A DNA stretch of 63,990 nt, the filler included, from Stramenopiles sp. TOSAG23-2 (taxonomy: Eukaryota), in assembly GCA_900128395.1 (NCBI GenBank). It is 6 parts of 6 records of this genome, joined end to end, with 100 filler letters (N's around TTAATTAATTAA, not from the genome) between each part and the next. Parts side by side here need not be neighbours in the genome. Positions count along the whole stretch, not along the records: positions 10,734 to 21,365 come from LT650003.1; 5 more parts are not named here. One strand, written 5' to 3'. Below the pieces are notes generated by a model. It ran no database searches, was not told where the DNA came from, and saw only the letters and a list, made by a program, of their open reading frames with translations. This document shows positions 4,520-44,620 of this stretch, one piece after another. The position numbers and the translations under genes are program-made. The stretch's first letter is position 1. Each line of letters begins with the position of its first letter.

Positions 4520-5968
4520 TTATTTTTTTCTAAACGCACCACCACCACCACCGGCACCACCACTGTCTCTCCACCAATCACTAGGTTTCTCATCAATTGC
4601 AATTGGATAATTCACTGGTTTTTGCATTTCACTTGTTACTTGAGGTGGCTCTCTAGGTGGATATGGAAAACGACGTCTTCTTGGATCAGCACAAGGATCA
4701 TCTAATGCATAAGAGCTTGCTGGTCCCATACATGGTGGGAGTGGGACGGGAGATGCTGGACGTTGACAACTAGTATCTAATGGGGAACATTTTTTTTGTG
4801 AATTGGATAAATCATGTTCACATGTTTTACCTGCCCATCCGTTCGTACATCGACATGCCATAACCGGTGGTTTTGGCGGTTCGTTATTCATGAAGGAACC
4901 TAATATTGAATTTTGTCCAAGGTCTTGTGGTATTTTTATTTCACCTTCAACGGCATTACCAATTGCATCGCCAAAGCCAGTAATACTACCACCTTTGTTT
5001 TTACCACTACCTCCTTTACTTTTGCTGCTACCACCTTTACTTTTACTACTACCACCTTTGGTTTCACTACTACCACCTTTGCTTTTACTACTACCACCTT
5101 TGCTTTTACTACTACCACCTTTGTTTTTACTACTACCAGATTTTTTCGAGCTGCTACCAGATTTTTTCGAGCTGCTACCACCACCACCACCTTTACTTGA
5201 TTTTGTTGATTGTGATTGTGAACCACCTTTTCTTGATGCAAATGCAACAGTATCTAATTCCTCTGTGGATTTTTGAGTTAATATCCTATTGTTCTTTTTC
5301 GTCTTTTCATTTATCTCTAAAAATACAAATTGTCCATTACTTCTTTCACACGTACCATGACCAGCGCATTCTTCCCCTTGTCCAGGTCCTGGAAGAGTAC
5401 CCTTAGGGCATCCATTACTTTTTACAAAATATTGCATTTTAGCTTTTGCAGCATTTTTTTGCCAAGAAGGTATGCGTTTAATGCCACCTTTTGATGAGCC
5501 ACCTTTTGATGAGCCACCTTTGCTTTTACTGCCACCTTTTGATGAGCCAGAACCTGAGCCAGAACCTAAGCCACCTTTGCCTTTGCTTCCACCTTTGCCT
5601 TTGCTTCCACCTTTGCCTTTGCTTCCGCCTTTGCTTCCACCTTTGCTTTTACTACTACCACCTTTGCTTTTACTACTACCCCCTTTGTTTTTACTACTAC
5701 CACCTTTGCTTTTACTACTACCACCTTTGCCTTTGCTTCCTCCTTTGCTTTTACTACTACCACCTTTGCCTTTGCTTCCTCCTTTGCTCTTACTTGATGT
5801 ACTTTGTGCGCCACCTTTTTGTAACATGTGGTTATTTTCAGTGTGCATATTATTGAACACATTCTGTTTTAAAAGCATTTTATTGGCAACGTTTGTACCT
5901 TCAATTTCCTCTATTAAACTATTATCTGCTGGTTGATTATTATATTTATTATTATTTGTAGGATGATG

Positions 5969-6003
<35 letters not shown>

Positions 6004-6280
6004 GATGATGTGGATGATGGTTTTTGTGCGTTGCTTTTTTTCTAATTACATTTGTATTGATATCATTATTTTTAATCAAAGGATGTACATTGTTGTTATT
6101 GTTTTGATGGTTATGATCGTTTAGACGTTTCTTTTGATTGTTGTTATTATTATTATGTTTTAAACTATATACAGATATAATCAATATATTACATATTATC
6201 AATAATAATGGAAGAAATTTATAATAATAATTCTTGTTCTTTTGAAACATGATCTTCTTGATATTCAATCTATTCTTCAT
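4520..6280 (-). CDS. Secreted Lys/Ser/Gly-repeat protein with a split EGF-like module and Cys/Pro-rich tail
   Basis: Signal-like FLPLLLIICNILIISVYS; two blocks of KGGSSKS/KGGSKG repeats; CAGHGTC and CRCTNGWAGKTC. Start at 6280 or 6250. Confidence 0.8.
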
Positions 6281-6501
6281 CTCTCTTATATATATATATA
6301 TATATTCAATCAATCAGAAAGTACGTAGTAGATAACAATTATGTTATCGAATACAATATCTATGTATCTAACTATTTATCTGTTTGTTACGACAACACCT
6401 AACATACTTCATATTTGATTAAACAATGTGATATTTATAAGAGATGCCCCTTTTCTTTATTCATTTTTAATGCATTCCTTCATTTTTTTATATATGGTTT
6501 C

Positions 6502-10733: not shown

Positions 10734-11440
10734 ATGGATTCGTATGCATGTTGGTCGTCATGTGCTTCTCCGCCATTACAAAATTCCGGGACTTGGGAAG
10801 AGGGTGGTTCCAAGTGGTCATGATCCATTAATACCTGAGTACTCGACGTAGAGACCAGATTGCGGAAAGTAAGGGATATCGCTGGAGCAACAACATTATT
10901 TAACACTTGTTGAATTCGTCGAACATAGTGGGAAATCCATCGCTGTCGCGAAACCTGATAACTTCGATTATTAGGGTCCTCTGGGTACTTCAATTCTGCA
11001 AAGTACATCATTAAATGGCAACCAGATGGGTCAATAAAACCATCATAATTTATTCCAAACGTGCAGACAGTAGGACGTCCATTCTGCGTGTGGTTGACCT
11101 GTTGATATAATTCCCATAGCTCCTTTTGAGCCCGAGTAACCACATTGGATCGAAAGTTGTTCCATGCTGCTAAATATTCGGCCTTCTTCTGCTTAGCTGC
11201 ACTACAAAGGTCACGGGAAGATAAACCTGAAAAATGCACGTCAATAAAGAAATAAGCAGCACCCTTGGCGGCCATCCAACGAAGAAAATCCAATGCCGCC
11301 GTGATCCCTGTCGGAGGTCTGGACGCAGCATATCTCGCATTGTATGCATTAGTACGAGGACCATCTCCAATTAGTGGAAATTGGTGAGGAGGAAGAAACG
11401 TATTACGAACAATTAATAAATCTCCATATGCCCGATAATT
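10734..11440 (-). CDS. GC-richer orphan ORF fragment, possible PD-(D/E)XK nuclease
   Basis: Frame is open from about 11440 to the contig end with no upstream ATG; YDGFID...FAELKYP motif; composition differs from neighbours. Confidence 0.4.
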
Positions 11441-11479
11441 TATATATATATATAATTTTATTTATATTTTTATATTCCC

Positions 11480-11779
11480 TTATTTACGATGATACACTCT
11501 ATCCCCAATAAATTTTATTGCATTTCGTTTCCCCAGACGAAATGGCCTACCAAATTCTTTCAAGCAATTTGGACATTTATAATCTTTATTAGTAAAATCT
11601 TTAACAATACGTTCTTCAATACACTTCACTAATGCACCTTTTCCTCCTTTTCTATATGTATATAATTTTGTCTTACATGAGTTACAAAATATATTTATTG
11701 TTTTTACAGGCATTTTTTTTTTTGGAAGAGTGGAAAAGCTTCGACAACTTATATATTTTAAAAGTAGAAAGGATGACAT
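11480..11779 (-). CDS. Small CxxC...CxxC zinc-ribbon protein with possible mitochondrial presequence
   Basis: FCNSCKTKLYTYRKGGKGALVKC...KCPNC; N-terminal MSSFLLLKYISCRSFST lacks acidic residues. Confidence 0.75.
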   Translation of the reverse strand: MSSFLLLKYISCRSFSTLPKKKMPVKTINIFCNSCKTKLYTYRKGGKGALVKCIEERIVKDFTNKDYKCPNCLKEFGRPFRLGKRNAIKFIGDRVYHRK

Positions 11780-12926
11780 TATCTATTTATACAATCTTTA
11801 TTATGTACAATGTTAGTTTTGTTTTTTTGAATAGGTCTATTATTAATTAATATTTTTTTTGACTTGAACACAAGATTTTTATGTTTTTTCAAATTAATTT
11901 TTCTACGCTGACGTATATTATCTCTAACTTTCCTGGCTAACTCTTCAACGTTTATAATTTCTTCTGTATCCATTTGTTATTATTAGTATAATCTTATATT
12001 TACCCAAACCATCAAACAACAAATCGAGAATATTGCTTTTGGTTATACATAATTTCCTCTTGTTTCCTCATTTGCACATTTTACTTTTCACACATGTATA
12101 TATTAATATATGTACTGTAAATTCAAAATATACATATTTTTGTCTAACCAGCTATAATAACCAGCAGCTAACTGGCTAACCAGCAGCTAACCAGGCTGAA
12201 TCCATAATCTACACCTACGGTGGTATCTCTGTTCCATAACGCCAACATCCATTATGAATAGTGTTATTTTTTTTCATATTTTGACACTTTTTCCACTATT
12301 TTAAATAGGATCTTGCACTTGCAAGTCTACAGAGCATTTTTTGTAAAAAATTCTACATTTTTGCACCTTTTTATGGATATTTTTATGTTGATAAATATGT
12401 AAATTGATATTTCAGGAATATAGATAAATGATTTCATTGTAAATTATATACCTGTAATAAATAATAGACTAGAAAAAGGATAATATTAATAATTTTAAAG
12501 ATTTTATTTACTCATACCAGCCGCCAGCCAGCATAAAGAACATTATATTAATTTACGCATAATTTATTGTTTTAATTTACTCATGATAATTCCTACTCTT
12601 CAAGAATATAAAATATATATATATCTTATATGAAAAAAATATGTGAAAGTTAAAGTATAAAGAAGATATTATTGAGGTAGCTATAAAGACATATATCATA
12701 TTATATTGAACTAAGAAAAAGCAAAGAAAAAGAGAAAGTCAGTGTGAAGGTAGATAGATAACTATATATACACATACGTACATACATACATATATAATTA
12801 AATACACAATGTCAGTGTTTCCACAACAAACTGCGAATACGATTTTATGTTTGTTTATGTGGAAAATCTATTCAATTTAACTCTGCTGCTATGTGCGATG
12901 CATGCATAGCAAGTGAAGTAGATATT

Positions 12927-13235
12927 TCAGAAGGTATACCAAAACAATCGCAATTCACAACCCAATGCTAATAATGCTTTTACGACATCCACATTCCCCG
13001 ACGATGCAGCAAACATTAACGGTGTTCTACCAACATTATTACGGCGATGAATAACTTCTTTACCATCTTGATTGTTTGGATGATTGATGAATGCATGTAA
13101 ATCATTAACAGTAAAAGTTTCTTTCATAATATCTTGGAATATATTCCGTGAAATTGATATTTTATACTTTGGTTTATTACTTCGACGAGCAATTAGTATT
13201 TGCATCAATTGTTCTGGATCTATTTCATAGTCCAT
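12927..13235 (-). CDS. Ankyrin-repeat protein (first exon or truncated)
   Basis: GRTPLMFAASSGNVDVVKALLALG ankyrin consensus; ORF ends right after it. Confidence 0.65.
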   Translation of the reverse strand: MDYEIDPEQLMQILIARRSNKPKYKISISRNIFQDIMKETFTVNDLHAFINHPNNQDGKEVIHRRNNVGRTPLMFAASSGNVDVVKALLALGCELRLFWYTF

Positions 13236-13367
13236 ATCAATTGCTTGCTGCTAAATAATGTTGTTGTTGTTTGAACTTTGTTATTTCGATTTTGGGCAAC
13301 ATTGCGACAACGGAAAGCGATCTTTTATATATATACTGACATATTTATATTCAGAGAGGGAGATCTA

Positions 13368-14459
13368 TTCACACTTTAAAACTTGTTAATATCCTATAAT
13401 TGTATCTAATAAATATTATCGTCCCGTATGAAGTTGGCAACGAGTTTTTGGCTTTTTTCGTGCGCCTTAAAATTGACGGCTAAAAAATTCAGGTTTTTTT
13501 TCTACCCAAATAATTTCCCGTATGAAGTTGGCAACGAGTTTTTGGCTTTTTTCGTGCGCCTTAAAATTGACGGCTAAAAAATTCAGGTTTTTTTTCTACC
13601 CAAATAATTTCAACTTGAAAAAGCCAATTTACCTTTTGACACACACTTCAACACACACAAAAATACACTTCCTCCATATTGTAAGACAATTCCTTGAACA
13701 CGCATGCTCCATCGATATATATAAACCATATACCAACTCGAATTGTATTACAATCGACTTTGAAAAAAATCGAATATCCAATGTCATTTCGTTCAATTTT
13801 CAGTATTTAAGTGATTTCTAATTAATTTTGATAGGGTATATATTTTATTTTGTACTAATTCAATACAAAAGGTGGGTTTGGATTTAAAAACTCAAGCAAT
13901 TACATGCACACACATGTGCACTCTTATGTGTAGTTAATCAATATAAATATGCAAAATATGACTGTCTATCATTTATTCATATTCAAATGAAAATTATTAA
14001 TGCGAAAAAGTAATTATTAAGATACAGAAACTGAATAATTGAATGCCATTAAGCAAATATATCCAGAAATTTAGAATTTAAGGTGCTACTACTGAACTTG
14101 AAAATTAGAGAGAAATAAACGAAATGACATTGGATATTCGATTTTTTTCAAAGTCGATTGTAATACAATTCGAGTTGGTATATGGTTTATATGTATCGAT
14201 GGAGCATGCGTGTTCAAGGAATTGTCTTACAATATGGAGGAAGTGTATTTTTGTGTGTGTTGAAGTGTGTGTCAAAAGGTAAATTGGCTTTTTCAAGTTG
14301 AAATTATTTGGGTAGAAAAAAAAGCTGAATTATTTAGCCGTCAATTTTAAGGCAAAATTATTAGTCACGAAAAAAGCCAAAACTCGTTGCCAACTTCATA
14401 CGGGACGATAATATTTATTAGATACAATTATAGGATATTAACAAGTTTTAAAGTGTGAA
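13368..14459. mobile_element. Long-inverted-repeat (foldback-like) non-coding element
   Basis: Arm 13368-13793 is a near-identical reverse complement of 14118-14459, around a ~325-bp unique spacer; ends TTCACAC...GTGTGAA. Confidence 0.6.
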
Positions 14460-14973
14460 GGCAAAATTATTAGTCACGAAAAAAGCCAAAACTCGTTGCC
14501 AACTTCATACGGGACGATAATATCACCACACTTACTCTCACACACCGTATAATACAGTAGCTAATGTTGCTATAATAACAAAACGGTTATACCTGTATAT
14601 GTATTCGTAGTTGCTATAATATGCACACATCGTAGCTCCTAGCTCTAAGTATGTGCATACGCTCATATTTTAAGGTATGGGCTGTAGCAGGGAAGAACGA
14701 AGGGAATCGAGTAGTACCATGTGCACATGTGCACCATAACCACAGGTGGATATATTGGTAACAAGATATAATAATAATATTTAGAGGCCGAAAAGTTGCC
14801 AAAAAAAATGTTCTCTAATAATAATTTTTATTATTTTTTTTTATTCTCTTTGCACCTTTCCTTTTTTTTAAAATCGCTCTCTCTGGCTCATCCGTTTTAA
14901 CATATTTAAAAATACAAGATGTAAAAATCTTCTACTAATCGTTTTTTGTAATCCAGACACCAGAAACTCATTT

Positions 14974-15013
<40 letters not shown>

Positions 15014-15053
15014 CTCACATATAAACATTTGATTGTAAACAATCGACATTTTT

Positions 15054-17300
15054 TTAATAACCAGTAGGAGTCATGATACCACTAGGACCATTTAAACCGA
15101 CAGGTGTTGACCTCTCTGTACATTGGTATATTTCATGCACTCTTGCATCTTCATCTACTACTAATTGAGTCATACCAGTATCTCCGTCAGTGACTAAATT
15201 ATAATAATTTAATGCAATATGCAAATCATCCTTTTCATCATACCAAGATGTAATAGTTGTCTCATCTTTTGTCTTTAATATGTGTCGAATTTCAACTTTT
15301 CTTTTATCTGGAACAATATTGCAAACATATTCTCCACCAAAATTTGGGCTTTCTAATAAACCAAAAAGCGCACCACCTTGAATGGGCCATAAATGTATTT
15401 TGCTATCCCCAATAAACGTCAACGAGCTATTTATTCCCAGCCTTGATCTTACTTGCAATTCAAGCGTTGGAGCTCGGTTCTTTCCTGTAATACTAAATGT
15501 CACTTTTATTTGTGCAAACATATATTTCATCAATTTACGTGCTAGCCATGGTACACCACATTTCATAAAGTAATTATCTCGATCACCATCTATTACTGCA
15601 TGCCAATCGTACACGCCATCCAATCCTTTAAATGCTGATATGCTATTGGATGCAGGAAAGGCAAGTAAATTAGGAGAACTGTCACTGCCAGCACCTGGCG
15701 AATAAGTAACTGTTGTTGTCTCTGGTGACATTGGTGGCGCACATGCACTCAATATCCACAAACCCAAGTCTTGCTTCCTCAATCTACGACCTTCGTTTGA
15801 TTCTAAATCTTCTGTTATTTTTTTCTTTGCTTGGACTATTTCCAATACATGACTGATGGAGGATCCATGTTTCAAAAGGAACTCATCAATCAGTTGCTCA
15901 CATAGCTCTAACATATCGTCATACATTTTTTCCATATTTTGATTATTTTCAATATCTTCCCTATTTTCATGTAAAAACTTGGAAATTGCAGCTGTCATTT
16001 CATTGCTGTCAATCATATACGACGCTAAACCTTTTAAAATCGATGCATCATTTCCTTTTTTCTTATCCTCGCTATCAAAATTCAATATATCATCATTGTC
16101 ATTTGTACCGAAAGGCGACAAGTCTAAAAATTCACCTTTCAACAACCCATGTAAAAAACCTTCACCAGTTTGTTCCTCGTTTTGATTGCTACTGCTACTG
16201 CTGCCACCCTCACCATTACCATTGTTGTTATTGTTATTATTATTACTATTATTGTCATCTTGACCATCAATTTTTGTAACTGCTATTAATAAACGTTGCA
16301 ATGCATGTCGCCTTGCAGTATTTTTATCATTTCTTCGACTAAGTGGAACCCACATGTCTTCCGTTGATGGCTCTGGATTCCAGCCAAGGAATGTACCAAG
16401 TAACGCCCTTGAACTTGATATATCACCATCTCCATCACTTTCATCAAATATATTACTGTAGCTAAAATCATCATTGGTGGTACTTGTTGTCGTCGTCGTT
16501 GTCGTACTGTTCCAGTTACTCTTTTTTTTCTTAGATGATGATGATGCATTGGAACGTTTCTTTCTTTTTTTCCCTTTTGTTGCACCAGTTGTACTACCAC
16601 GTTTTCTCGGGCTTCCTTTACCATTGCTCTTTTTCCGACGTTTATTTTCACGTGCAGTTTGTGTAGCTTTGATAAAATCATCTATATCTTGTTGTGTTAC
16701 AGATAAATGCTGCTGCGCAGGCTCTTGTCCATCCTTTGCACGTTTACTACTAGATAACGTGAAATCAGATGTTTTAGACAATGCAGAGAGTGTCAAGTAT
16801 CCAAAACTTTTTACCGAAGGTGTGAATAGATATACACGAAAATTATGCGATTGATCTTTCTTATGCTTGCTCGAACGCCATCCATAATGCCAACTAGTAG
16901 GCGAAAAATAAAATGTTGTTTTAACTCTATGACTATCACTTAATCTTTCTTCGCTTATTTTTTCACTAGAAACGAACTCTTTCAATGGATCCTCGCGATC
17001 GCGTACACGTTGCCTAACGTTTTCTGCATCGTAGGTATTATTCAATACCAAGCTCAAATTGTCTGGTTCTGGTAACGGGTCGTCCCTTGTAGAAAATCTA
17101 CCGAGTACCAAGGCTTCTTCAGCTAAAAAATCTCTTGAATAAGTTGTTACTGCAACACGGTGACCACAAAAACCTTTTGCATGATGTCCAGTTGGTAAAC
17201 ATTCTGGAAAACAACGTAAATTTTTCAAGCCACCACGCTTATTGTTACGCAAGTAATGATCCCGACATAACGATTCAATATGTACTTCAAATTCTTCCAT
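15054..17300 (-). CDS. Putative transcription regulator: conserved NLRCFPEC/WHYGW domain, basic NLS-like tract, C-terminal FABP-like domain
   Basis: 748-aa ORF; N-domain shared with the adjacent paralogue; KRRKK and KGKKRKKR tracts; GVYDW...DNYFMKCGVPWLARK resembles the FABP/calycin N-terminus. Confidence 0.75.
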   Translation of the reverse strand: MEEFEVHIESLCRDHYLRNNKRGGLKNLRCFPECLPTGHHAKGFCGHRVAVTTYSRDFLAEEALVLGRFSTRDDPLPEPDNLSLVLNNTYDAENVRQRVRDREDPLKEFVSSEKISEERLSDSHRVKTTFYFSPTSWHYGWRSSKHKKDQSHNFRVYLFTPSVKSFGYLTLSALSKTSDFTLSSSKRAKDGQEPAQQHLSVTQQDIDDFIKATQTARENKRRKKSNGKGSPRKRGSTTGATKGKKRKKRSNASSSSKKKKSNWNSTTTTTTTSTTNDDFSYSNIFDESDGDGDISSSRALLGTFLGWNPEPSTEDMWVPLSRRNDKNTARRHALQRLLIAVTKIDGQDDNNSNNNNNNNNGNGEGGSSSSSNQNEEQTGEGFLHGLLKGEFLDLSPFGTNDNDDILNFDSEDKKKGNDASILKGLASYMIDSNEMTAAISKFLHENREDIENNQNMEKMYDDMLELCEQLIDEFLLKHGSSISHVLEIVQAKKKITEDLESNEGRRLRKQDLGLWILSACAPPMSPETTTVTYSPGAGSDSSPNLLAFPASNSISAFKGLDGVYDWHAVIDGDRDNYFMKCGVPWLARKLMKYMFAQIKVTFSITGKNRAPTLELQVRSRLGINSSLTFIGDSKIHLWPIQGGALFGLLESPNFGGEYVCNIVPDKRKVEIRHILKTKDETTITSWYDEKDDLHIALNYYNLVTDGDTGMTQLVVDEDARVHEIYQCTERSTPVGLNGPSGIMTPTGY

Positions 17301-18008
17301 GTTGATTTCTTTATTTGTTGGTGCGTATATTTATATATGTATATGTTGTATATATATATATTATTATGCAATATTGGTGAAGCTATATATATTATTATGC
17401 CCCGTCTTTTACTAGCTATAATAATTAAATAAATATTACGAACGTATTATTATTATAATTGTTGATATAAAAAAAGACCGATATATATATGATAGTTAGT
17501 AATAATATAAATATAAATATAAAATATTTCTTATGTTGTTCTTCTTTGTTAGTAATATATAATATGATATTCCTGTTTCAAGCTATGACTTAACTATCAT
17601 ATATTGGCCATATGTCAACATAAATCTACATGTAAATAATTTCGTATATATGTACATATATAATTCTAATAATAATAATAATAATAGCTGCATTTATTAC
17701 TAGTAGCACTCCAGCACTACCGCACTACCGACCAGGTACTGATGAGCACATGACTGATGATAATTTTTTGCAATTTTCGGTTATTCTAGTTATATAGGCC
17801 GTAATATCATTATAAGAATAAATCAGTGTTGCTTGAACTATTAATATTTCATTTAAATATTATGCTGGTCGTATAATGCTATTGAATGCTATGGAAAAAT
17901 ATTAAAATCTTAGCTATATCTCAACGCTATCGTAGATTTGGACCTTTGTCCCACGTGCGCAGTGCTACCCTCTAAAACATGCCAAAACTGTACAAAACAT
18001 GCCAAAAC

Positions 18009-18092
18009 TGTACACTTATTATAACACTATTCACTATAGTGGAAATATTCATCATTTTTTCTATATTTTCGGATATTTGCTATTTTTTCCAA
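18009..18092. repeat. ~65-80-bp non-coding block repeated at ~21287-21365
   Basis: CACTATTCACTAT...GAAATATTCATC..TTTTTCTATATTTTCGGATATTTGCTATTTTT present upstream of both paralogues. Confidence 0.85.
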
Positions 18093-18458
18093 ATATATGA
18101 AAAATAAAATTGGTATTTTAGAAAACGATAGAGTAGCACTGCGTGCGTTTTCATCCTCTAAATTTTTCCTCTGACACGTGGAATATTAATGCTATGTACC
18201 TGCTAAATTTCCCAAACCAATAAGCTTGTGGATAATGCACCAAGATCGAACTTCGCACCAATTAGTGTAAGACTGAAACAGTATCTTGGTGTCGTCCAGA
18301 AACGCTAGAGCTATATATATATTTATCGGGCATATTTACCAGCATATCACAGATAAAAAAAATCAAAATATTTTTTTATTAAAATATTTTTATATAATCA
18401 TACACGACAACTTGACCTTTTACTACTACCGCCTAACCCCGATAAATTACTACTCGTA

Positions 18459-20672
18459 CTACTGATTACGCGGCATTCCAATATCATTATTACTATTATT
18501 ACTTTGCATGTCACTAGTTATTGACGATTTTTTAAGTAGTATTTTAGTACCCTTCTGTGCACTTGGATGAAACATTTTATTTTCAGTTAAATCAGATGGC
18601 GTAGGAGATGCTTTTCCATCAAACAAACTTCTACCGTTTTTCATACTAGTAGAAGAGCTACTTTTGCTTTCACCAATACTTAAGGAATCTGGTGGACCAG
18701 CATGATTAGTACTTTGTATTGATGTATCAAAGATCGGCATTTCCGATGCCTCAAATTGAGGCGACAAACTCATACCGATTTGTGGCATTTTGTTTCCATC
18801 TTCTAGATTTATATCTGACGACGGCATTAACATCGGAGAAGCTATAAATGCGGACTCTAACGACAATAAATTATTACTACTACCACCTAATCCCGATAAA
18901 TTACTACTCGTACTACTGATACGCGGCATTCCAATATCATTAGCACTATTATTACTTTGCATGTCACTAGTTATTGACGATTTTTTAAGTAGTATTTTAG
19001 TACCCTTCTGTGCACTTGGATGAAACATTTTATTTTCAGTTAACTGGTATTTCGATAAGTATCGATTATGTAATACATTTGGATCCTGATCTTCCACATA
19101 AATATCATCGTCATGCTCACTATCACTTGGTAATGTCAGCATGGAATCCGATCTCTCATACCTTGCTTCTCTAGCAGCAGACGTATTCTGCAATAAAGAT
19201 GCGTGTGGCATTATGACGCTACTACTACCATGATCGAAGGACAATCCGTTATTAGAAGTAGTATTTTTTCCCTTCTTCTCCCTCTTCTTCTGTTTCTTTC
19301 TAGGGCTTTTGCTATTACTTTTTTTATTTTTCGCTGGACGTTTATTTTTATTTTTCTCTTTCGTTTTACTTGTACCCGATTGTTGATTATTGGACAAAAT
19401 TTTTGTGATATAAGTCGAACCTCTATTCAACAACGAATCAATTGCTATTTGAAGTTTGATACGCTTTATTTTTGGATCCTCACCACTAATTCCATCACCA
19501 TTTGTTTGGTTTAACATCGATATGGAGGATAATCCTACCTGTTTAGCTAATTTTCTTTTAATTACACTTTTTTGTATTTTCTTACGCTTCTTTGTTTCTT
19601 TACTGTTTTGCAACTCTGCACATTTTCCCGGCGTTACTGTCAAATGCTGTTGAATTGGTAATTGACCTGCCCTTGCACGTTTGCTGCTTGATAATGTAAA
19701 CGATGATGTTTGTGAGACTGCTACACATACCATTGTATCACATGCACGGATCATCATTGGGTTGTTATTACGATCTACTATGCCCTCATCGTCAGCATCA
19801 TTGGCATCTTTACTTATTGAAGATTTATCCATCATGATGTCATCTGTTTTTTTCGTTACAGTCATTGGATCATTGCTGATGCTACCATTACCAATATGAT
19901 TACTTTGCGTCGCTTTTTTCAATGCTTTCTTTGGTAATAATAAAACTACACGAAAGCAATGACGTTGATCTTTTTTATGTTTACTTGAACGCCAACCATA
20001 GTGCCAACTTGTTGGTGAAAAATGAAAAATAGTTTTATACGTAGATGTGTTTGGATTTTTCCCCCCTTCAAATTTTTCACTAGCAACGTAATCTTTCAAT
20101 GGGTCATCTCGTGTACCTATTGTTGTGTGTGTTACATTTTGTTTGGTTAGTTCACAAATTTTCTTTTCGGTTTAGATTCTGGTTCACTTTCAGACGTTGA
20201 TTCCAGGTTCAGTTCCAGGTTCAGTTTCAGTTTCAGTTCAGATTTTCAGCCAAGAGCCAGCTGCCAAGATTCTATACATAATATAGTATATATAATTTTA
20301 CTTACGTGTATTTTCAGCTAACTCAGCAATTTTCATCTCATCCCCAATCTTAAATACATCTTCATTTGTCACCATCATGTTTTTTTTCCATGTGACGAAC
20401 GAACCGACTAAAATGCTTCCATTTGGCAATGGGCGCTCGGTATTGCACGTTACGGCGACCCTATGCCCACAAAAACCTTTCGAATGATGACCGGAAGGTA
20501 GACATTCTGGAAAACAACGTAAATTCTTTAAACCACCACGTTTATTGTTACGCAAATAATGTTCCCTGCACAAAGAGTTTACGACTAAATTATACCGCGA
20601 TGAATTCAAAAGATTGGGAAAATCTATAGCAGGTGATGGTGATGTAGAATTTCTAACAGATATTTTAGACAT
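18459..20672 (-). CDS. Paralogue of the 15054-17300 gene, two exons (20672-20306, 20116-18459)
   Basis: GTAAGT donor at 20305 and TAG acceptor at 20117 give ENTRTRDDPLKDYVASE, collinear with RVRDREDPLKEFVSSE in the paralogue; 3' end disturbed by a duplication of ~18875-19043. Confidence 0.8.
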
Positions 20673-21365
20673 TTTAGTATGTGAGACTATGTAAAATATT
20701 TTTTTTCTACTATGGACGTCCACAGGAAGGGTAAAAATATAAATAATTAATCAAACAAGACAAAATACAATACAATGATTGATTAATGTAATGTTGATTT
20801 CCTTATTCTGTCCTACCTCTCTCTTTTGTATATATAATATATATGCGTAGGTATTATCTATATATGAATGCCAGTCACGGTAGTAGTAATAGTAGTTGTT
20901 GTTTTATGTCTATTCGTAAATATATTACGTTTTGGTTGCACATAGTGTGTCGCACTGTTAGTAAGTTAAATACATGTATCTATATATTTTGCCCATTATT
21001 TATTGTACAAGACAATAGCAGGACACATCATTACAATTTAAAAACTAATTGTAATACAAAATCTACCACCAGTTTTGATGCGTCAATGCGTCTAGATGAA
21101 ATCTTTTTACAAGCAAGTGCTATATCAATGCTATTTAATGTCTAATCTGGTACATGTAATCCACTCCAACCTTGTAGACTATCTGTTGACGACAGTATAC
21201 AGTATTATAACTTGTGCCCACTTGCCCACACGTGCCCAAAGTAAAAAGTAAAGATCTATAGTTTACAATACTAACCACACAAATATGTGCACTTAAGCAC
21301 TATTCACTATGGGGGAAATATTCATCGTTTTTTCTATATTTTCGGATATTTGCTATTTTTTACAA

Positions 21366-22278: not shown

Positions 22279-22863
22279 TTAAACTTTTTCTAATTTGGTA
22301 AAGGTACCACCACCTAAACCTTGCATTTTGATTTTATATATATCTTTGTTGCTAGTATTTATTAAATATTGACAGTTGTGATGTTCCATCATACGATGTT
22401 TACCACAATATCTATGTTTGCATTTACATTCCATATCAGTTAATTTTAATTTCACTTTGCAACCATCAAACCAACAACGTTTTTTAGATTTCTTTTTTTT
22501 CTTTTTTTTTGGTTTTTTATCTTCACCATCCCCATTTGCAACGGCAGTGGCAGTAGAACTAGCATCATCAGATGCTGATGGTTTACTATCATTTTGTTCA
22601 GATTGTTTCATTATTGTTTCCTCTTTTTCTTTTTTTTTAATGTTGTTTTCAACAACATTATTTTGACTAACGTTGTCCGTTTCTTCGTCTACGTCCATTT
22701 TAACTACATTTTCATGTGTAGTTGTTGTTGTTGTTGTTGTTTGTTGTGGTTGTTGCATTGATAATTGCAATGCAGCTGCTAATATTGGATCATGTTCATC
22801 ATCATCTTCAATTGATAAATTTCTATCAATATTCGTAGGTCCTTGATCATTATGTTGTGACAT
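22279..22863 (-). CDS. AN1-type zinc finger protein with UIM-like motif
   Basis: RCWFDGCKVKLKLTDMECKCKHRYCGKHRMMEHHNC; DPILAAALQLSMQ. Confidence 0.9.
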   Translation of the reverse strand: MSQHNDQGPTNIDRNLSIEDDDEHDPILAAALQLSMQQPQQTTTTTTTTHENVVKMDVDEETDNVSQNNVVENNIKKKEKEETIMKQSEQNDSKPSASDDASSTATAVANGDGEDKKPKKKKKKKSKKRCWFDGCKVKLKLTDMECKCKHRYCGKHRMMEHHNCQYLINTSNKDIYKIKMQGLGGGTFTKLEKV

Positions 22864-25900: not shown

Positions 25901-26616
25901 TCACTCCAAATGTTCCATTCCACGTCGTTCTTTTGCTGATTTAACAATTTCTTTTACATATGATAAACGATGGTCACCTTTTAACATACGTACTAATGGT
26001 GTTGGCTGTGTTTTACGTTTACGATTATCACGTGTTAATTTAGATGTTGGTTTTTCTTCACAACGTTTATATATACCAAGTACTTTTTTATTATATTTAA
26101 TTGTTTTTGTTTCATATAATTTACGTGGTGGTACTAATCGTTGATTTATTGGAGACGATGATGATGGATGAATAATAATATATGGTTCTTGTGGTTGTAT
26201 TTTCAAATCATGATTTCTTACCTTCGTATTGTATTTTATTAATGGCGAATGTATATGTTTATCCATTATATTTTTATTATTATTAAAATTGTTGTTGTTG
26301 TTGTTGTTATCATCACCTCCTTGCCGCCTTTTATTACGTATACGTTTTGGGGAAATTGCTTCAACACGTTGTTGTGGTGATAATATTGTTTTTTTTGTAT
26401 CTTGATCATGATATTCATCATCTTCCATATGAAATGATTGGTTTAAATCATCATTTACAATGTTGATAACATGAATCGTTTCATGATTTGTTAATTTGTT
26501 GATATTATTATTATTATTATCACGATTAATAAAATGAAATGGTGTATTAATATTCGATATCATTTTATTATATAATAATTCATTTTCATTTGTTTGTTGT
26601 TGTTGTTCTTGTTGTG

Positions 26617-26648
<32 letters not shown>

Positions 26649-27226
26649 CGTTTTTCATGAATGCGTTTTGGTGATTTTGCTACAATACCTGTAGTAGTAG
26701 TAGTAGTTGGATGTATTGACATCCTTGGTATACCATCCATATGATTATTATTACTTGTAGTATTTATCTTGATAGATGTTTGTGGTGATTTTAATCGATC
26801 CAATGGTGATGATGGTATTATTTGTTCATGATAATATATTGGATTTCTTAAATTTCTTAATTTATAATGTTGTAAACGTTTTTTTGCATATGAATTTGGT
26901 GTAGATGTTGTTCCTGTTGTTGTAGTTGGCGATTGTTTTGGTGATAATATACGTGCAGATGGTATACTACTATATTGTTGTCCTTGTTTTGGTTTTTTAA
27001 TTGTTTGTATTGATGGTTGATGTTGTACATGCAATGGTATGGATGATAATTGGTTTAATTTTAATATGTTATTATTATTATTATTATTGTTGTTTAATGT
27101 AATCGATTGAAAGGTTGGTGGATATAATAATGTATTTGTATGTATTGCTTTATGCGCACGTTGTATCGCTTTTTCTGCATTGTATATTGATGGATGTACT
27201 GGTTTTGGTTTACGTGGTGTTGGCAT
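25901..27226 (-). CDS. Hypothetical low-complexity (Asn/Gln/Thr, SP-rich) protein
   Basis: 441-aa ATG ORF with host-typical poly-Asn tracts. Confidence 0.65.
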
Positions 27227-28227
27227 TTTGTTTGTGTAAAGATGATGCCAACTTGGTTATTTATCTTTGCAATTATATACCAGAAAACCTCCCACCACAA
27301 AATGATGAATAATAATAATATTACGTAAATATATATATTATATATTATATCAAAATTGAATCAAACAATGAATGAAAAATAAAATAATTGCTTCTTTTTC
27401 TGTCGTCGTTGTCGTCTACACTATTATATGGATACAGTATATAGCTATAATGAAATGTATATTTACATCACACCCAGATCACACACTCTGGCATGTACGC
27501 ACAGTTCATATATAGTATATGTACACATTTCTTACAGTTAGATATATATTTGCAATTTGCAATGTGCAATGATGTGTCCATCATATTCGATCTCCCTGTA
27601 CTGTAGTATTTACATGCTATTATACTCACAAGGTACATAGCATTGATACATCCAATACCCGATCTTCTCGATCCCCATATTATATATTATATTCTTCGCT
27701 GCGCTGATATTTCAACATATGGGCTGTAGCAGGGAAGAACAAAGGGAATCGAGTACCCCTATAACTCCGTACTCACATAAATTATTGATCCCCATCATCT
27801 ATAATGCTATTTGTATGTTAAAACCTATGATCGCTGGTTAGATAGGTATATTATCCCACATTGCACTATACGTATAAGTCATAAGTCCGTCATCAATCTG
27901 AAATAAGAAGAAGTTATTAAAAAAAAAAAGGATACCACCACAGACCACAGACGACAGGTGAAGGAAGTACCAAATGAATTAATAGAAGAGATGGGAGATC
28001 GACAATGTGAAGATATATATATAGATATATATATACATACATATATACGGCGGTGAATTATTATATTATTATCAGCATCAATATATATAGTTGGCATAAA
28101 TTACCAACATATTCACACATTTTTAAGATAAATTATTATATTATTATCAGCATCAATATATATAGTTGGCATAAATTACCAACATATTCACATTTTTTTA
28201 AGATAATTTTATAATCAATATATAACC

Positions 28228-29521
28228 ATGACCACATCGTTGCCAACATATGAAGAGATATTAAATGTATGGTTTCATGAAAAATATACAGATAAACCAT
28301 TTTCTAAATTATGGTTTACTACACCAAATTCAACAAATCAAATCAACGCAGTAAGTTTACTTCACAATATATATATATATATATATATTCACAATTTACT
28401 AACAATACTCAATCCCTTTTTTTATTTTTTTTTAATTCCCCACACAGGATCAATATATCAAAGAAAATTATACTACCATATTAAATGTTATTGAAAATGA
28501 TATTCAGATCATAAACGACAACAATAACAATACCTCAACAACACAAATCATTGATGAATGGAAAAAACAACCAATATCATATGTTGCATTAATTATAATA
28601 TTAGATCAATTCAGTCGTCATATTTATCGTAATAATAATAATAATAAACAACAACAATTACAAATAAATGATTTATTTGCATTATCATTAACAAATGAAT
28701 TTATCAATACGTTAAAATGGTATAAATATGTACCAATATTATATCAAATATTTAGTACCATGCCATTACGTCATCACAAACCAACAACTATCAATAATTT
28801 AAATTTTGTATTAAATATGTGTACAAAATATAAAAATACAAATGATTTAAATCATCGTGTATTAATGAAATTTGAGAAACAAACTATAAGACGTTTAGAA
28901 AGTTTACAAGATAAAGAAAAAGCATTAAATGCATTATCGATATTAGAAAATGAATATCGTAAAACAGATGAAACAAATATATATCATGAAAAATTAATAA
29001 AATTAGTTGATTTATTTTTACATGAATATATATTTCCTAGTAGTAATGATAATAATAATAATTCAAATGAAATATTAAATGAAAAAGAAATAATTGAACG
29101 TACATTAATAATATCATTATCAGGTGGTGTTGATTCAATGGTATTATGTAAAATATTAAATGTATTAGCAAAGAAATATAATCATTTACAAGAATATTAT
29201 GCAACAAATAATAATAATAATAATATGAAGAAGAAAAATAAGAAACAACATGTACGTAAAAAACGTAAAATATCAACAACATTAACAACACCAAAATATA
29301 AAATAAATGTTATTGCATTACATGTTAATTATAATAATCGTGTTGAAAGTATTGATGAAGCAAATTATTTACAAAAATGGTGTAAAGATCATGATATTGA
29401 ATTATTAATTGAATCATTTACTGATATTAAACGTGGTATTACACCACGTGATGTATATGAAAAAGAAACAAGAAATCGACGTTATCAATTTTATAAAGAT
29501 GTTTTAGAACATAAATATCAC

Positions 29522-29555
<34 letters not shown>

Positions 29556-30816
29556 TTGGTAATGGAAGTAGTAGCACTAGTAGTAGTAATAACAACAACA
29601 GCAACAACACTACTACTACTACTACTACCACCACCGCCAATAATAATAATAATAATAATATATTATACAATGCAACTATAATAATAATAATAATAATATT
29701 GGTAATGGAAGTAGTAGCACTAGTAGTAGTAACAACAACAACACTACTACTACTACCACCACCAATAATAATAATAATAATAATAATAATATATTATACA
29801 ATGCAACTGGTATCTTTTTTGGACATCATCAAGGTGATGTACAAGAAAATGTTATAAGTAATACAATGAAAGGTAGTAATTTATTGAATTTATCTGGTAT
29901 GCATTCATGTAGTACAAATAATAATAATAATAATAATATATTATACAATGCAACTGGTATCTTTTTTGGACATCATCAAGGTGATGTACAAGAAAATGTT
30001 ATAAGTAATACAATGAAAGGTAGTAATTTATTGAATTTGTCTGGTATGTATTCATGTAGTACAGTGAATAATGTATTAATATATCGACCATTATTATCAA
30101 TTAATAAAAATTTAATCATACAATTTGCAAAAAAATATGGTATACCATATTTTCTAGATACAACACCAACATGGAGTAATCGTGGTAAAATGCGTAATCA
30201 ATTAATACCATTATGTCAAGATATGTTTGGTTCCGGTGTATTATTAAAATTATCACAAATGGCAAATCAATCAAGTGAAATATCAAATGTATTAAATCAA
30301 ACATTATTTCATAAATTTAAAAAAAAAATACATATTATTAAACAATATGATATTGTTAGTATTGAGATTGATGTACCACGTGTTAGTAGTAATAATAATA
30401 AAAATAATGATGATATGGATGATATGAATTTTGTTAATATGCCATTATTTTTTTGGCGTACTATGTTAAGTGATTTATGTCATAGTCAAGGATGGCCGAT
30501 GATTGGCAATAAAGCATTAAATGAAATGTTAATATGGTTTAAACGTGGTAAAAGTAGTTGGATACCAGTGAAAAAAACAATGCCAACTTTATATCATCAA
30601 GGTATATTATATATGTTTAATGGTAATTTATTTTTTAAGAATAATAATAAAAAAGATGTTGATAATGATGATGATGATAAGAAAGAAAAACGTTCTGTAA
30701 TATCAATTGAATCCAATCGTATATTAAATATATTTAATGGTAGTTATGTTGTTCGTAACTTTATACATGTTGTTTTGAAGACATTGGAGGTGGTGGACGA
30801 GGTGGTGAACAAGTAA
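28228..30816 (+). CDS. tilS: DUF924-like domain fused to tRNA(Ile)-lysidine synthase-like PP-loop ATPase; intron 28351-28447; frame broken by internal duplications at ~29520-30060
   Basis: Spliced N-terminus EILNVWF...LWF...ALIIILDQFSRHIYR...MPLRH; then SLSGGVDSMVL, HVNYNNR, RNRRYQFY, GHHQGDVQEN, YRPLL, DTTPTWSNRGKMRNQLIP. Confidence 0.85.
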
Positions 30817-42875: not shown

Positions 42876-44240
42876 TCATGGGTATGCCATATCATTAGAA
42901 ATAAAATAACATTTCACATGATTTGTATAGATCAATCTCGATTTTGTTTTCTTATTGTTATTATTGTAGTTGTTGTTATTATTATTCTTACGTTTCAACA
43001 ATTCTTCTTGTTTATTTGTATTATTCATTTTTTTTGTATGTAAAACCTTTAAAATATCATGATAACTATTAATACTATTCTTCTTGGTAAGATTGTCTTC
43101 AGTAATCCCCGATAACATAACATACAAATTTTCATCTAAACAATATACACCATCATCAATAATTAAAGGTTCAGTCGCATGTATACCAAGAATACATCGA
43201 AGTTTTTGTACATCAATACTATCAACAGCATGTAGCTTCCATCTATTTTTAATTGCTGCTTTTAAAATATTGTTAATGATTTCATGTTTCTCATCATTTA
43301 GTTGTGAATAAATACAATGAATAGGTTTCATTTGTTGTATTGCATAAATTTGAAATTTATTTTCACTTGTTAAGACAGCATCACTACCAGGACTATCAAA
43401 ATGAAAATAAATATTGCCATCATATCTATTTTTTACACCACAATTGCGTAAAAGTTGAAAACTACCAGATGGAGTATTATTAGGATGCGATGATGATTGC
43501 AATGATCTATTTGTAATCGTTGATTGAGGTTGACAACGGCAAAACATAAATTTAAAAATTTTAAATTGTCGTGGCATCAAAGATACATTGTCAATAGAAA
43601 ATCTTGTACATCCTTTGTTAGATCTTTCACTCGAAATTCTATCATCTCGCAACGCTATTGAATAAAAGGCACTATCAACATAATTCTCAGATTTATTTGC
43701 ATTTACAACATCAAAACGAAATTCAAGATCCCCATGTCCCATAATTGGAAACGGACTTTTATTCCATATTTTAAGATTCAAAAATGCCTCTCCAATAATA
43801 TCTTCATTTCTCAACACTTCAGTGTGAATATCAATCGAACTTTCAACCATTGTTTCTAATGCTTTATTCATTTGTATCACAGCTGCTACTCCTTGTTTTA
43901 CACTATGTGATATTTCTTGAACCGCATGGTTAAATGCATTCCCCATGTTGGATACATTTGTAGCTAAATTTGAAAACATAGGTGTTGGTGGTGTTGAATT
44001 AGATGTTACTAGAGTATCTTTTTTAGTTTGTTTTGGTGATGTTAAATTTTTTTTCATTTTCTTTTTTTCACTTTCTCCAATAATTTGTATATGGTTGTTA
44101 TCATTGTTATCACTTTGTTTTCTTTTTTGTTTATTCATCGTATTATTATCGTAGTTCTCATTATTATTATAATTATTATATATATCTACGTTTCTGACAA
44201 TTCTTCTTTTATACCAAACTGGGGATATAACACACAACAA
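42876..44240 (-). CDS. Hypothetical protein (start uncertain)
   Basis: 454-codon open frame with globular-looking central region; no family recognised. Confidence 0.65.
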   Translation of the reverse strand: MLCVISPVWYKRRIVRNVDIYNNYNNNENYDNNTMNKQKRKQSDNNDNNHIQIIGESEKKKMKKNLTSPKQTKKDTLVTSNSTPPTPMFSNLATNVSNMGNAFNHAVQEISHSVKQGVAAVIQMNKALETMVESSIDIHTEVLRNEDIIGEAFLNLKIWNKSPFPIMGHGDLEFRFDVVNANKSENYVDSAFYSIALRDDRISSERSNKGCTRFSIDNVSLMPRQFKIFKFMFCRCQPQSTITNRSLQSSSHPNNTPSGSFQLLRNCGVKNRYDGNIYFHFDSPGSDAVLTSENKFQIYAIQQMKPIHCIYSQLNDEKHEIINNILKAAIKNRWKLHAVDSIDVQKLRCILGIHATEPLIIDDGVYCLDENLYVMLSGITEDNLTKKNSINSYHDILKVLHTKKMNNTNKQEELLKRKNNNNNNYNNNNKKTKSRLIYTNHVKCYFISNDMAYP

Positions 44241-44620
44241 TAATCTACATATGTATAATTTAAATTAGTCTAATAAAAAAAATAATATTATTATAAAAAA
44301 AAAAGTGGAGGAAGAAGAATGCCAGAATGTGGTGCTTTTTATTTGTGATTTCGTATGATCGTATGAATCTGTATTAGTATGATTTTATAGCCTTGTGCTA
44401 TTCTGATCCTATAAAAATAGAATATATTCCTTAAAGTTATAATTATATATATATAGTTTTAATGGTTATGACATATAATATTAAGTATTTTTAAAATTAA
44501 AAAATATTTATGAAAGCTAAAACAACTAGAAACAGATCTGTCTCTCTGTGTATATCTAACGATAAATAATTTGTATGCGCGTACATTTGCTTGTATAGAA
44601 ATATATATGCAAAAGTAAAG

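Follow-up and report, generated by a model that had tools for sequence, protein, structure and literature searches.

A stretch of DNA from Stramenopiles sp. TOSAG23-2 (assembly GCA_900128395.1; 63,990 nt, six parts joined with filler letters, called the window below, along which all positions are counted) contains, in the part derived from LT650003.1 (positions 10,734 to 21,365), two adjacent minus-strand genes that share a conserved N-terminal domain (N-domain). Gene 1 encodes a protein in which this domain is followed by a basic linker, a helical middle domain, and a C-terminal domain (C-domain) predicted to adopt the fold of fatty-acid-binding proteins (FABPs). Gene 2 carries the N-domain and basic tracts but has no middle or C-domain. 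We regard the evidence as evenly balanced on whether gene 1 belongs to a widespread family of eukaryotic nuclear regulators that consist of one polypeptide and respond to a ligand. No description of the domain combination of gene 1 was found in the literature, and its family is a large one.

Structures of the two genes and their shared domain

The following features were located for gene 1:

15054..17300, minus strand: gene 1 coding sequence, a single uninterrupted open reading frame in one exon, 748 aa; stop codon at 15054-15056
16716..17300, minus strand: N-domain (aa 1-195), basic and, as modelled, all-beta
16521..16652, minus strand: basic tract resembling a nuclear localisation signal (NLS; aa 217-260, RENKRRKK...KGKKRKKR...SKKKK), in a low-confidence linker
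15795..16073, minus strand: middle domain (aa 410-502), predicted acidic helical bundle, tentatively BART-like
15096..15635, minus strand: C-domain (aa 556-735), predicted FABP-like 10-stranded barrel

and the following for gene 2:

18459..20672, minus strand: gene 2, 674 codons after splicing, with one terminal stop
20306..20672, minus strand: exon 1 (aa 1-122 and the first base of codon 123), coding for a leader at the N-terminus followed by half of the N-domain
20117..20305, minus strand: intron of 189 nt, GTAAGT...TAG, phase 1
18459..20116, minus strand: exon 2, rest of the N-domain, basic tracts and a Ser/Asn-rich tail
19641..20603, minus strand: N-domain (aa 24-281 of the spliced protein); the span takes in the intron

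Gene 1 is 65% identical to gene 2 exon 1 over its aa 4-71 (E 4e-32) and 64% identical to exon 2 over aa 102-156 (E 2e-20), and comparison with the spliced gene 2 protein gives 52% identity over 153 aa (E 3e-60; local jackhmmer and BLAST). Judged from sequence, this likeness is far beyond chance, and no similarity was detectable between the two proteins beyond the N-domain. An initial annotation made from the DNA alone had described adjacent same-strand genes that share a conserved domain, diverge completely after it and both carry basic NLS-like tracts, all of which was recovered here, with the gene 2 tracts lying behind the N-domain at aa 295-302 and 375-406. Its account of gene 2 is amended by the intron and by a 67-aa insert (aa 184-250) that splits the last hairpin of the N-domain, and its domain count for gene 1 by the third folded domain at aa 410-502.

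The reading frame of gene 2 meets GTAAGT at 20305, and the homologous frame is regained after TAG at 20119-20117. RNA data were available as contigs from four runs of four studies (three metatranscriptomic and one labelled transcriptomic), which give neither depth nor transcript ends. The exact 189-nt joint was found in contigs of all four runs (X1, X2, X3, and X10; CT..AC on the plus strand, longest flank 245 nt). Contigs cover 18561-20664 of gene 2 (20303-20664 for exon 1) and 15029-17383 for gene 1, which is intronless, so that its presence in the libraries does not prove transcription. The spacer between the gene bodies (17443-18497) is almost without RNA contigs. Extra gene 2 exons that might encode a lost sensor were sought in 17301-18458 and rejected, there being no minus-strand open reading frame of at least 60 aa and almost no RNA cover.

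Conservation was derived from two alignments, A1 (82 members) and A2 (32 members, mostly with the N-domain only). Residues that are invariant or nearly so in both are Y16, R18, N19, N20, G24, K26, N27, R29, C30, F31, P32, C34, H39, G43, F44, C45, G46, W137, H138, Y139, W141, H152, and F180, and the consensus of the domain reads YQRNNKRxGxKNLRCFPxC...GH...GFCG ... GWHYGW.SNKH.....H ... SP.F.LFCRRR.R. As C30, H39, and C45 are invariant and C34 nearly so, the C-x3-C-x4-H-x5-C set suggests a putative metal site that fits zinc. The N-domain is basic throughout the family (median isoelectric point (pI) 9.41, with 133 of 137 domains exceeding 8; median net charge +9), and 105 of 125 family proteins have a cluster of at least four Lys/Arg in six residues at or just behind its end.

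The N-domain probably has a Rel/velvet-like fold

An AlphaFold2 model of gene 1 was built on A1 (mean predicted local distance difference test (pLDDT) 70.4). Its aa 1-190 form an all-beta block with pLDDT mostly of 85-96 (10-residue block means), and the linkers at aa 229-304, 352-408, and 505-547 fall below 50. Among the 50 VIA structure-match rows, 17 belong to aa 1-~200, and proteins with the Rel homology domain (RHD) or the velvet domain are the top eight of these, with no sequence-level match beside them. Neither a lipid-binding Ig-like chaperone nor a C2 domain occurs among the 17 rows. On the strength of the model, the N-domain is a putative DNA-binding domain of probable Rel/velvet-like fold. 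The initial annotation had proposed an Ig-fold DNA-binding domain like that of velvet proteins, which agrees with the likeness at the model level but is not matched by a Pfam Velvet or RHD hit; no characterised non-DNA-binding family emerged for the N-domain in the Pfam scan or among the structure matches listed. The recognition-loop motif of RHD proteins is absent from the N-domain. A homodimer prediction of the N-domain, run without controls and without a family alignment, scored 0.00 and says nothing either way.

Pfam scans of 41 + 48 + 82 family proteins returned no model that covers the N- or C-domain, and no RHD, velvet, or lipocalin family is among the Pfam families shown for them. The Pfam version searched is older than Pfam 38.1 and seems to be without the PF28397 model. 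The description of the domain as unnamed in the initial annotation stands for that version, where there was no match, but is questioned by a search of a protein atlas, in which scores below 0.9 are taken as leads only. This search gave an unnamed Oomycota cluster at 0.91 and, at 0.88 with 177 shared features, a cluster labelled 'DG1062 N-terminal domain-containing protein', half (50%) of whose members carry PF28397. DG1062_N (PF28397, Pfam 38.1) is thus a lead for the name of the N-domain. A further neighbour, the LAG1 DNA-binding (Rel-like) family at 0.78, is an independent weak lead for a Rel-like fold. We consider it quite possible, if somewhat short of an even chance, that the N-domain belongs to a named family, that is, to DG1062_N and/or the CudA-like/STAT-type DNA-binding domains of Amoebozoa. 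However, the score of the DG1062 cluster is that of a lead, and in our literature search 'DG1062' matched DOI strings only, none of them together with Dictyostelium. If it applies, the name would make the N-domain a catalogued but still unexplained one; it would supply no function, and the FABP-like partner would still be undescribed.

The C-domain is predicted to be an FABP-like barrel

In the same model, aa 556-735 form a block with pLDDT of 72-92 and a single dip to 59 at aa 641-650. Strand A is followed by two lid helices (574-580 and 585-594) and nine further strands, of which E and F are separated by an insert of 19 aa (aa 638-656), so that the predicted structure is a ten-stranded antiparallel barrel with a helix-turn-helix lid between strands A and B, as in FABPs. 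For the C-domain, a Foldseek search against the PDB returned 63 matches at E ≤ 1e-3 (best E 1.2e-4; template modelling score to the target 0.63-0.79), and those listed (ranks 1-50) are all of the FABP fold, including FABP3, 4, 5, 7, and 9, myelin P2, CRBP, LBP-8, UnaG, and NanoLuc. The FABP-like C-terminus that the initial annotation had read from the DNA is hence borne out by AlphaFold2 and Foldseek, which return a 10-stranded calycin barrel and not some other fold. The A1 profile searched against PDB sequences gave 29 matches at E ≤ 1; 23 of them are FABP, CRABP, or ReP1-NCXSQ sequences, whose alignments start at their first residues and span profile positions 384-511.

The calycin signature consists of an N-terminal G-x-W and a conserved basic residue in the last strand. 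The family consensus has G.W at the start of the C-domain (G in at least 90%, W in at least 70%) and A.R near the C-terminus. The E-F insert contains PIQGGALFGLLESPNFGGEY, which is identical in gene 1, P0001, and P0198, and the whole loop of aa 639-658 is the same in these three proteins. Since the E-F turn of FABPs belongs to the ligand portal, the insert may be a gate. Other searches of the C-domain were less informative. Single-sequence AlphaFold2 modelling gave a mean pLDDT of 34 and was unusable, the best scores in the ESM atlas were 0.81-0.80, which is chance level (a nanoluciferase-labelled neighbour was not counted), and a word-indexed search with the C-domain alone found two fragments only, P0001 (74% identity) and P0002.

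Distribution and history of the family

A phmmer search with aa 1-200 of gene 1 against 1.84 billion representatives yielded 613 matches at E ≤ 1e-3, 214 at E ≤ 1e-10, and 6 at E ≤ 1e-30; the family counts below rest on the best 150 of the 613 N-domain representatives. The C-domain was found in 41 of these by local jackhmmer (seed gene 1 aa 531-748) and in 40 in a second, laxer run. Among the 58 representatives of at least 580 aa, 39 have the C-domain, 32 the middle domain and 30 both, and only 1 of the 92 shorter ones, many of which are fragments of short contigs, has them. The FABP-like domain is therefore a family standard and not, as the initial annotation had it, special to gene 1. That annotation had suggested jackhmmer for taxonomic spread and domain partners; among the 40-41 proteins in which the C-domain was found, some come from oomycetes, labyrinthulids, and a chytrid assembly. 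Named sources of N-domain proteins are the oomycetes Achlya hypogyna, Thraustotheca clavata, and Peronospora farinosa, the labyrinthulomycetes Mucochytrium quahogii and Aplanochytrium stocchinoi, and an assembly of the chytrid Batrachochytrium salamandrivorans (KAH9259346.1, on a 457-kb contig). All of these members carry the annotation 'hypothetical' or 'uncharacterized', as does CAK8998408.1, in which an N-domain protein is merged with a Ku80 model.

Gene 1 itself is represented in the public collection by P0197, the identical 748-aa protein, and P0198 (678 aa) is a full-length orthologue that aligns over aa 1-728 (E 8.5e-252); P0200, P0201, and P0004 are other close full-length orthologues. 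In a maximum likelihood tree of the N-domain from 39 proteins (43 domain rows), hand-picked from 179 with a near-complete domain, gene 1 groups with P0198 (support 97/90), and gene 1, P0198, gene 2, P0003, P0200, P0201, and P0004 form one clade (91/96), within which the position of gene 2 is weak (80/41). P0003 lies on a 1173-nt contig and is probably cut short. Because all full-length members of the clade except gene 2 carry the C-domain, the simplest history would be that a tandem duplication took place and gene 2 then lost its middle and C-domains, and we infer from these sequences that gene 2 is a derived paralogue without the sensor half. The initial annotation had given gene 2 a Ser-rich tail in place of the sensor, which is right as to the Ser/Asn-rich tail and the lack of a C-domain and is now extended by its derived status. 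Forms with the N-domain only, like gene 2, appear to be real, as P0005 and P0008 are represented by 21 and 8 cluster members that are complete, with 335-350 aa, on contigs up to 470 kb.

Among 48 N-domain-only or otherwise C-domain-less proteins, 45 have no Pfam match, and P0005, the third with any match, has a sub-threshold low-complexity match only. P0010 (from a transcript assembly, 756 aa) combines the N-domain with zf-CW (E 1.9e-15) and Cys-rich repeats, P0034 combines it with three Myb repeats (E 7e-33) and an AP2 match that stays below threshold (29.7 bits, cut-off 33.3), and P0211 has a precomputed PF03457. The zf-CW and Myb partners, though few, suggest a nuclear location. At least four Cys-rich units (C-x2-C-G-G-x-x-I-C-x-H-K-R-x-R-S-x-C-K-x-C), without a Pfam match, stand upstream of the N-domain in P0010 and P0018 (1057 aa) and are possibly an unnamed zinc-finger repeat. 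In saprolegnian proteins the N-domain occurs 2-3 times per chain. P0023 (Achlya hypogyna, 1075 aa), P0025 (Thraustotheca clavata, 1471 aa), and P0199 (1301 aa) have 2-3 complete copies separated by ~350-500 residues that the C- and middle-domain profiles do not recognise, and these proteins may consist of whole units repeated in tandem, with sensor halves that have diverged, or may result from merging of gene models.

Proposed mechanism and alternatives

From the gene structures, splicing, architecture, and charge that were observed and the folds that were predicted, we infer that gene 1 binds DNA, a metal, and a ligand and that these activities are coupled. The basic N-terminal beta-sandwich, with its Rel-homology/velvet-like fold and probable Cys3-His metal site, would bind DNA, with the invariant N-terminal Y-x-R-N-N-K...K-N-x-R loop and the W-H-Y-G-W strand as its probable contacts, and the basic tract behind it would serve as the NLS. 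The FABP-like barrel may take up a small hydrophobic molecule, for instance a fatty acid or a compound like a retinoid or a tetrapyrrole, and the acidic middle bundle might relay ligand occupancy, masking the DNA-binding domain or the NLS or recruiting a partner. The outcome would be nuclear entry or DNA binding under ligand control, and gene 2, with the putative DNA-binding domain and basic tracts only, could be ligand-independent or act as a partner or competitor of gene 1. More tentatively, and appreciably short of an even chance, the two genes might represent an ancient family of one-component ligand-gated transcription factors, with a zinc-stabilised Rel/velvet-like domain, a BART-like transducer, an FABP-fold sensor, and N-domain-only ligand-blind partners or antagonists, that is present in stramenopiles, probably haptophytes and dinoflagellates, and early fungi.

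Several observations weigh against the proposal of a ligand-responsive nuclear regulator. On the side of the N-domain, the Pfam scan of gene 1 and gene 2 gave no match at E ≤ 1, RHD and Velvet are absent from the 25 most frequent of the 89 Pfam families found for the 82 members at E ≤ 10, and a profile of the N-domain only, searched against PDB sequences, gave 8 matches at E ≤ 10, none of them RHD (best E 0.94). There is also no IPT/TIG dimerisation domain behind the N-domain, either in the model or in the Pfam scan; after aa 195 the gene 1 model has a helix and then the disordered basic linker, with no beta domain until aa 556. Basic tracts are frequent in low-complexity protist proteins, and the Myb/AP2 fusion of P0034 could be a merged gene model.

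On the side of the C-domain, the best E-value of the A1 profile to FABP sequences is only 0.025, no Pfam lipocalin/FABP match was found (for gene 1 at E ≤ 1 and, for the 82 members, among the 25 families listed at E ≤ 10), and gene 1 itself reads G562-V-Y564, with Tyr for Trp, the nearest Trp being W566 two residues on. The FABP fold also occurs in luciferases and heat-soluble proteins without ligand sensing. It is conceivable, although we think it unlikely, that gene 1 is a nucleic-acid or chromatin protein in which the barrel is a structural or protein-interaction module without a small ligand and the N-domain perhaps binds RNA or histones instead of specific DNA, so that it would be a nuclear factor but no sensor. 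However, the barrel and lid helices are kept even in very distant members, as is the 'G.P....K' lid motif, and the loop of aa 639-658 at the portal site is identical in the three proteins named above, which suggests a functional pocket or gate.

The middle domain is modelled as helices (aa 410-502, pLDDT 79-94), is acidic across the family (median pI 4.7), and weakly resembles BART (ARL2_Bind_BART, PF11527); one member barely reaches the Pfam cut-off for BART, and the helical-bundle matches score well below the value, about 13, under which the search tool advises caution for helical folds. Cytoplasmic trafficking would likewise agree with a BART-like domain combined with a lipid-binding fold. 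Owing to this domain and to the distribution of the family among flagellates, we retained the alternative of a cytoplasmic lipid-handling or trafficking adaptor, in which the barrel would carry a lipid or lipidated cargo, the BART-like bundle would dock an Arl-type GTPase, and the beta-sandwich, C2- or Ig-like, would bind acidic membranes or a protein. We judge this distinctly unlikely. Apart from the low level of the helical-bundle matches, the 17 N-domain rows hold RHD/velvet structures in the top eight places and no lipid-binding Ig-like chaperone or C2 domain, Lys/Arg clusters follow the N-domain in 105 of 125 proteins, and the partner domains zf-CW and Myb are nuclear. Moreover, proteins with the N-domain only (gene 2, P0005, and P0008) make little sense as lipid carriers.

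Should gene 1 indeed be a ligand-responsive nuclear regulator, at least 613 representative clusters of unannotated proteins would become candidate transcription factors. Gene regulation is poorly mapped in marine protists, oomycetes, and labyrinthulids, and censuses of transcription factors based on Pfam miss the N-domain family. Rel/velvet-type folds would then be much wider spread and older than thought, and the FABP fold would gain a new role as the sensor part of a transcription factor. On the more tentative reading of an ancient ligand-gated family, Rel-like domains would also exist outside opisthokonts and Amoebozoa, and no transcription factor before gene 1 would have had an FABP-fold ligand sensor of its own, which would make such factors the protist equivalent of nuclear receptors. 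Such proteins might form a route that links lipid or pigment status to gene expression, including in plant and animal pathogens among oomycetes and chytrids. In any case, the family is a target for annotation, with three domains of which two are without a model in the Pfam version searched.

Additional features of the window

The 3' end of gene 2 contains a direct repeat:

18420..19043 overall, minus strand: direct duplication of 18420-18590 and 18874-19043, 96-98% identical, spacing 453/454 nt

Through this 171-nt duplication a 40-aa segment (LTENKMFHPS...) occurs twice, and the two halves are offset by 1 nt, which creates the present stop codon of gene 2. Since contigs of three RNA runs break at 18561 and 19043, near the limits of the repeat, the duplication has possibly been collapsed or expanded in the assembly. 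A 12-nt tandem repeat of ~3 copies lies within the gene 2 intron at 20201-20241, and an (AC)18 microsatellite is found at 14975-15010, 44 nt downstream of the gene 1 stop codon. In run X10 (oligo-dT) only, contigs join 14822-14855 to 19307-19362, 15808, and 16561-16578, with T/C-rich filler letters in between and flanks of just 20-22 nt; these joins have the appearance of chimeras that arose at a T/C-rich stretch in the library or the assembly.

The DNA of the window is eukaryotic and rich in AT (GC 0.23-0.38), and elsewhere it holds ordinary nuclear genes, such as those for a KIF9-type kinesin, RCC1, EB1, G6PD, sulfatases, and GH31. Beside gene 2, 22279-22863 (minus strand) encodes a 194-aa protein with a poly-Thr run, a Lys-rich tract, and a C-terminal AN1-type zinc finger (E 2.1e-9), which is of the ordinary stress-associated-protein type and has no evident tie to gene 1 or gene 2. 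A single open frame at 28436-29857 (plus strand) matches DUF924 (aa 4-138) and a PP-loop ATP-binding domain (aa 286-360) and may be a fusion or a read-through of two exons from different genes. Open frames without a Pfam match at E ≤ 1e-5 are found at 44570-49108 (plus strand, 1512 aa), 4520-6313 (minus strand, 597 aa), 25901-27256 (minus strand, 451 aa), and 42876-44264 (minus strand, 462 aa).

Comparison with known systems

By every sequence test run, gene 1 is not a member of the RHD, velvet, or FABP families, and our literature search found no paper on the N-domain family or on an FABP fold fused to a DNA-binding domain. The N-terminal RHD subdomain (NF-kB p52/p50/p65, c-Rel, and NFAT5/TonEBP) has no sequence similarity to the N-domain of gene 1. 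Its recognition loop is replaced in the gene 1 family by Y-x-R-N-N-K-x-x-G-x-K-N-x-R-C-F-P, it is without the invariant Cys/Cys/His/Cys set of the gene 1 family, and the latter lacks IPT/TIG and occurs in stramenopiles and a chytrid assembly, not in animals. Velvet proteins (VosA, VelB, and VeA; PF11754) differ from the N-domain in their conserved motifs, gene 1 and gene 2 gave no Pfam Velvet match at E ≤ 1, and unlike gene 1 velvet proteins are not known to be fused to FABP-like or BART-like domains. Passages of a survey of velvet proteins beyond fungi (PMC10845976) contain no occurrence of 'oomycete' or 'protist', and passages of a census of transcription factors in P. infestans (PMC11267843) have nothing on the N-domain family.

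Intracellular lipid-binding proteins (FABP1-9, CRBP, CRABP, myelin P2, and LBP-8) and other proteins of the FABP fold (UnaG and NanoLuc) share 7-16% identity with the C-domain, which has no Pfam match. FABPs are free-standing carriers of ~130 aa, whereas the C-domain of the gene 1 type comprises ~180 aa at the C-terminus of proteins of 600-1000 aa, its greater length being due to longer strands I and J and the 19-aa E-F insert. The nearest, albeit weak, likeness of the middle domain is to the BART-like domains of ARL2BP/BART and BARTL1 (CFAP36).

Other systems offer analogies to the proposed coupling of a lipid-type ligand to gene expression. The barrel of VtrA/VtrC is formed jointly by both proteins. 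In this bile-salt receptor of Vibrio parahaemolyticus, a lipid-type ligand is reported to control a transcription activator through a calycin/lipocalin-like barrel (PMC4933562). VtrA/VtrC differs from gene 1 in being bacterial, membrane-bound, made of two polypeptides, and equipped with a winged-helix DNA-binding domain, and nothing tested makes the two homologous. On binding their ligand, the animal proteins FABP4, FABP5, and CRABP2 move into the nucleus and hand it to a receptor; compared with this delivery of ligands to PPAR and RAR, gene 1 would build the carrier fold into the factor itself. Nuclear receptors, finally, have zf-C4 and a helical ligand-binding domain, which are absent in gene 1 (no Pfam match at E ≤ 1; predicted beta folds at both ends), but by analogy they too couple a DNA-binding module to a pocket for a hydrophobic ligand, as is proposed here for gene 1.

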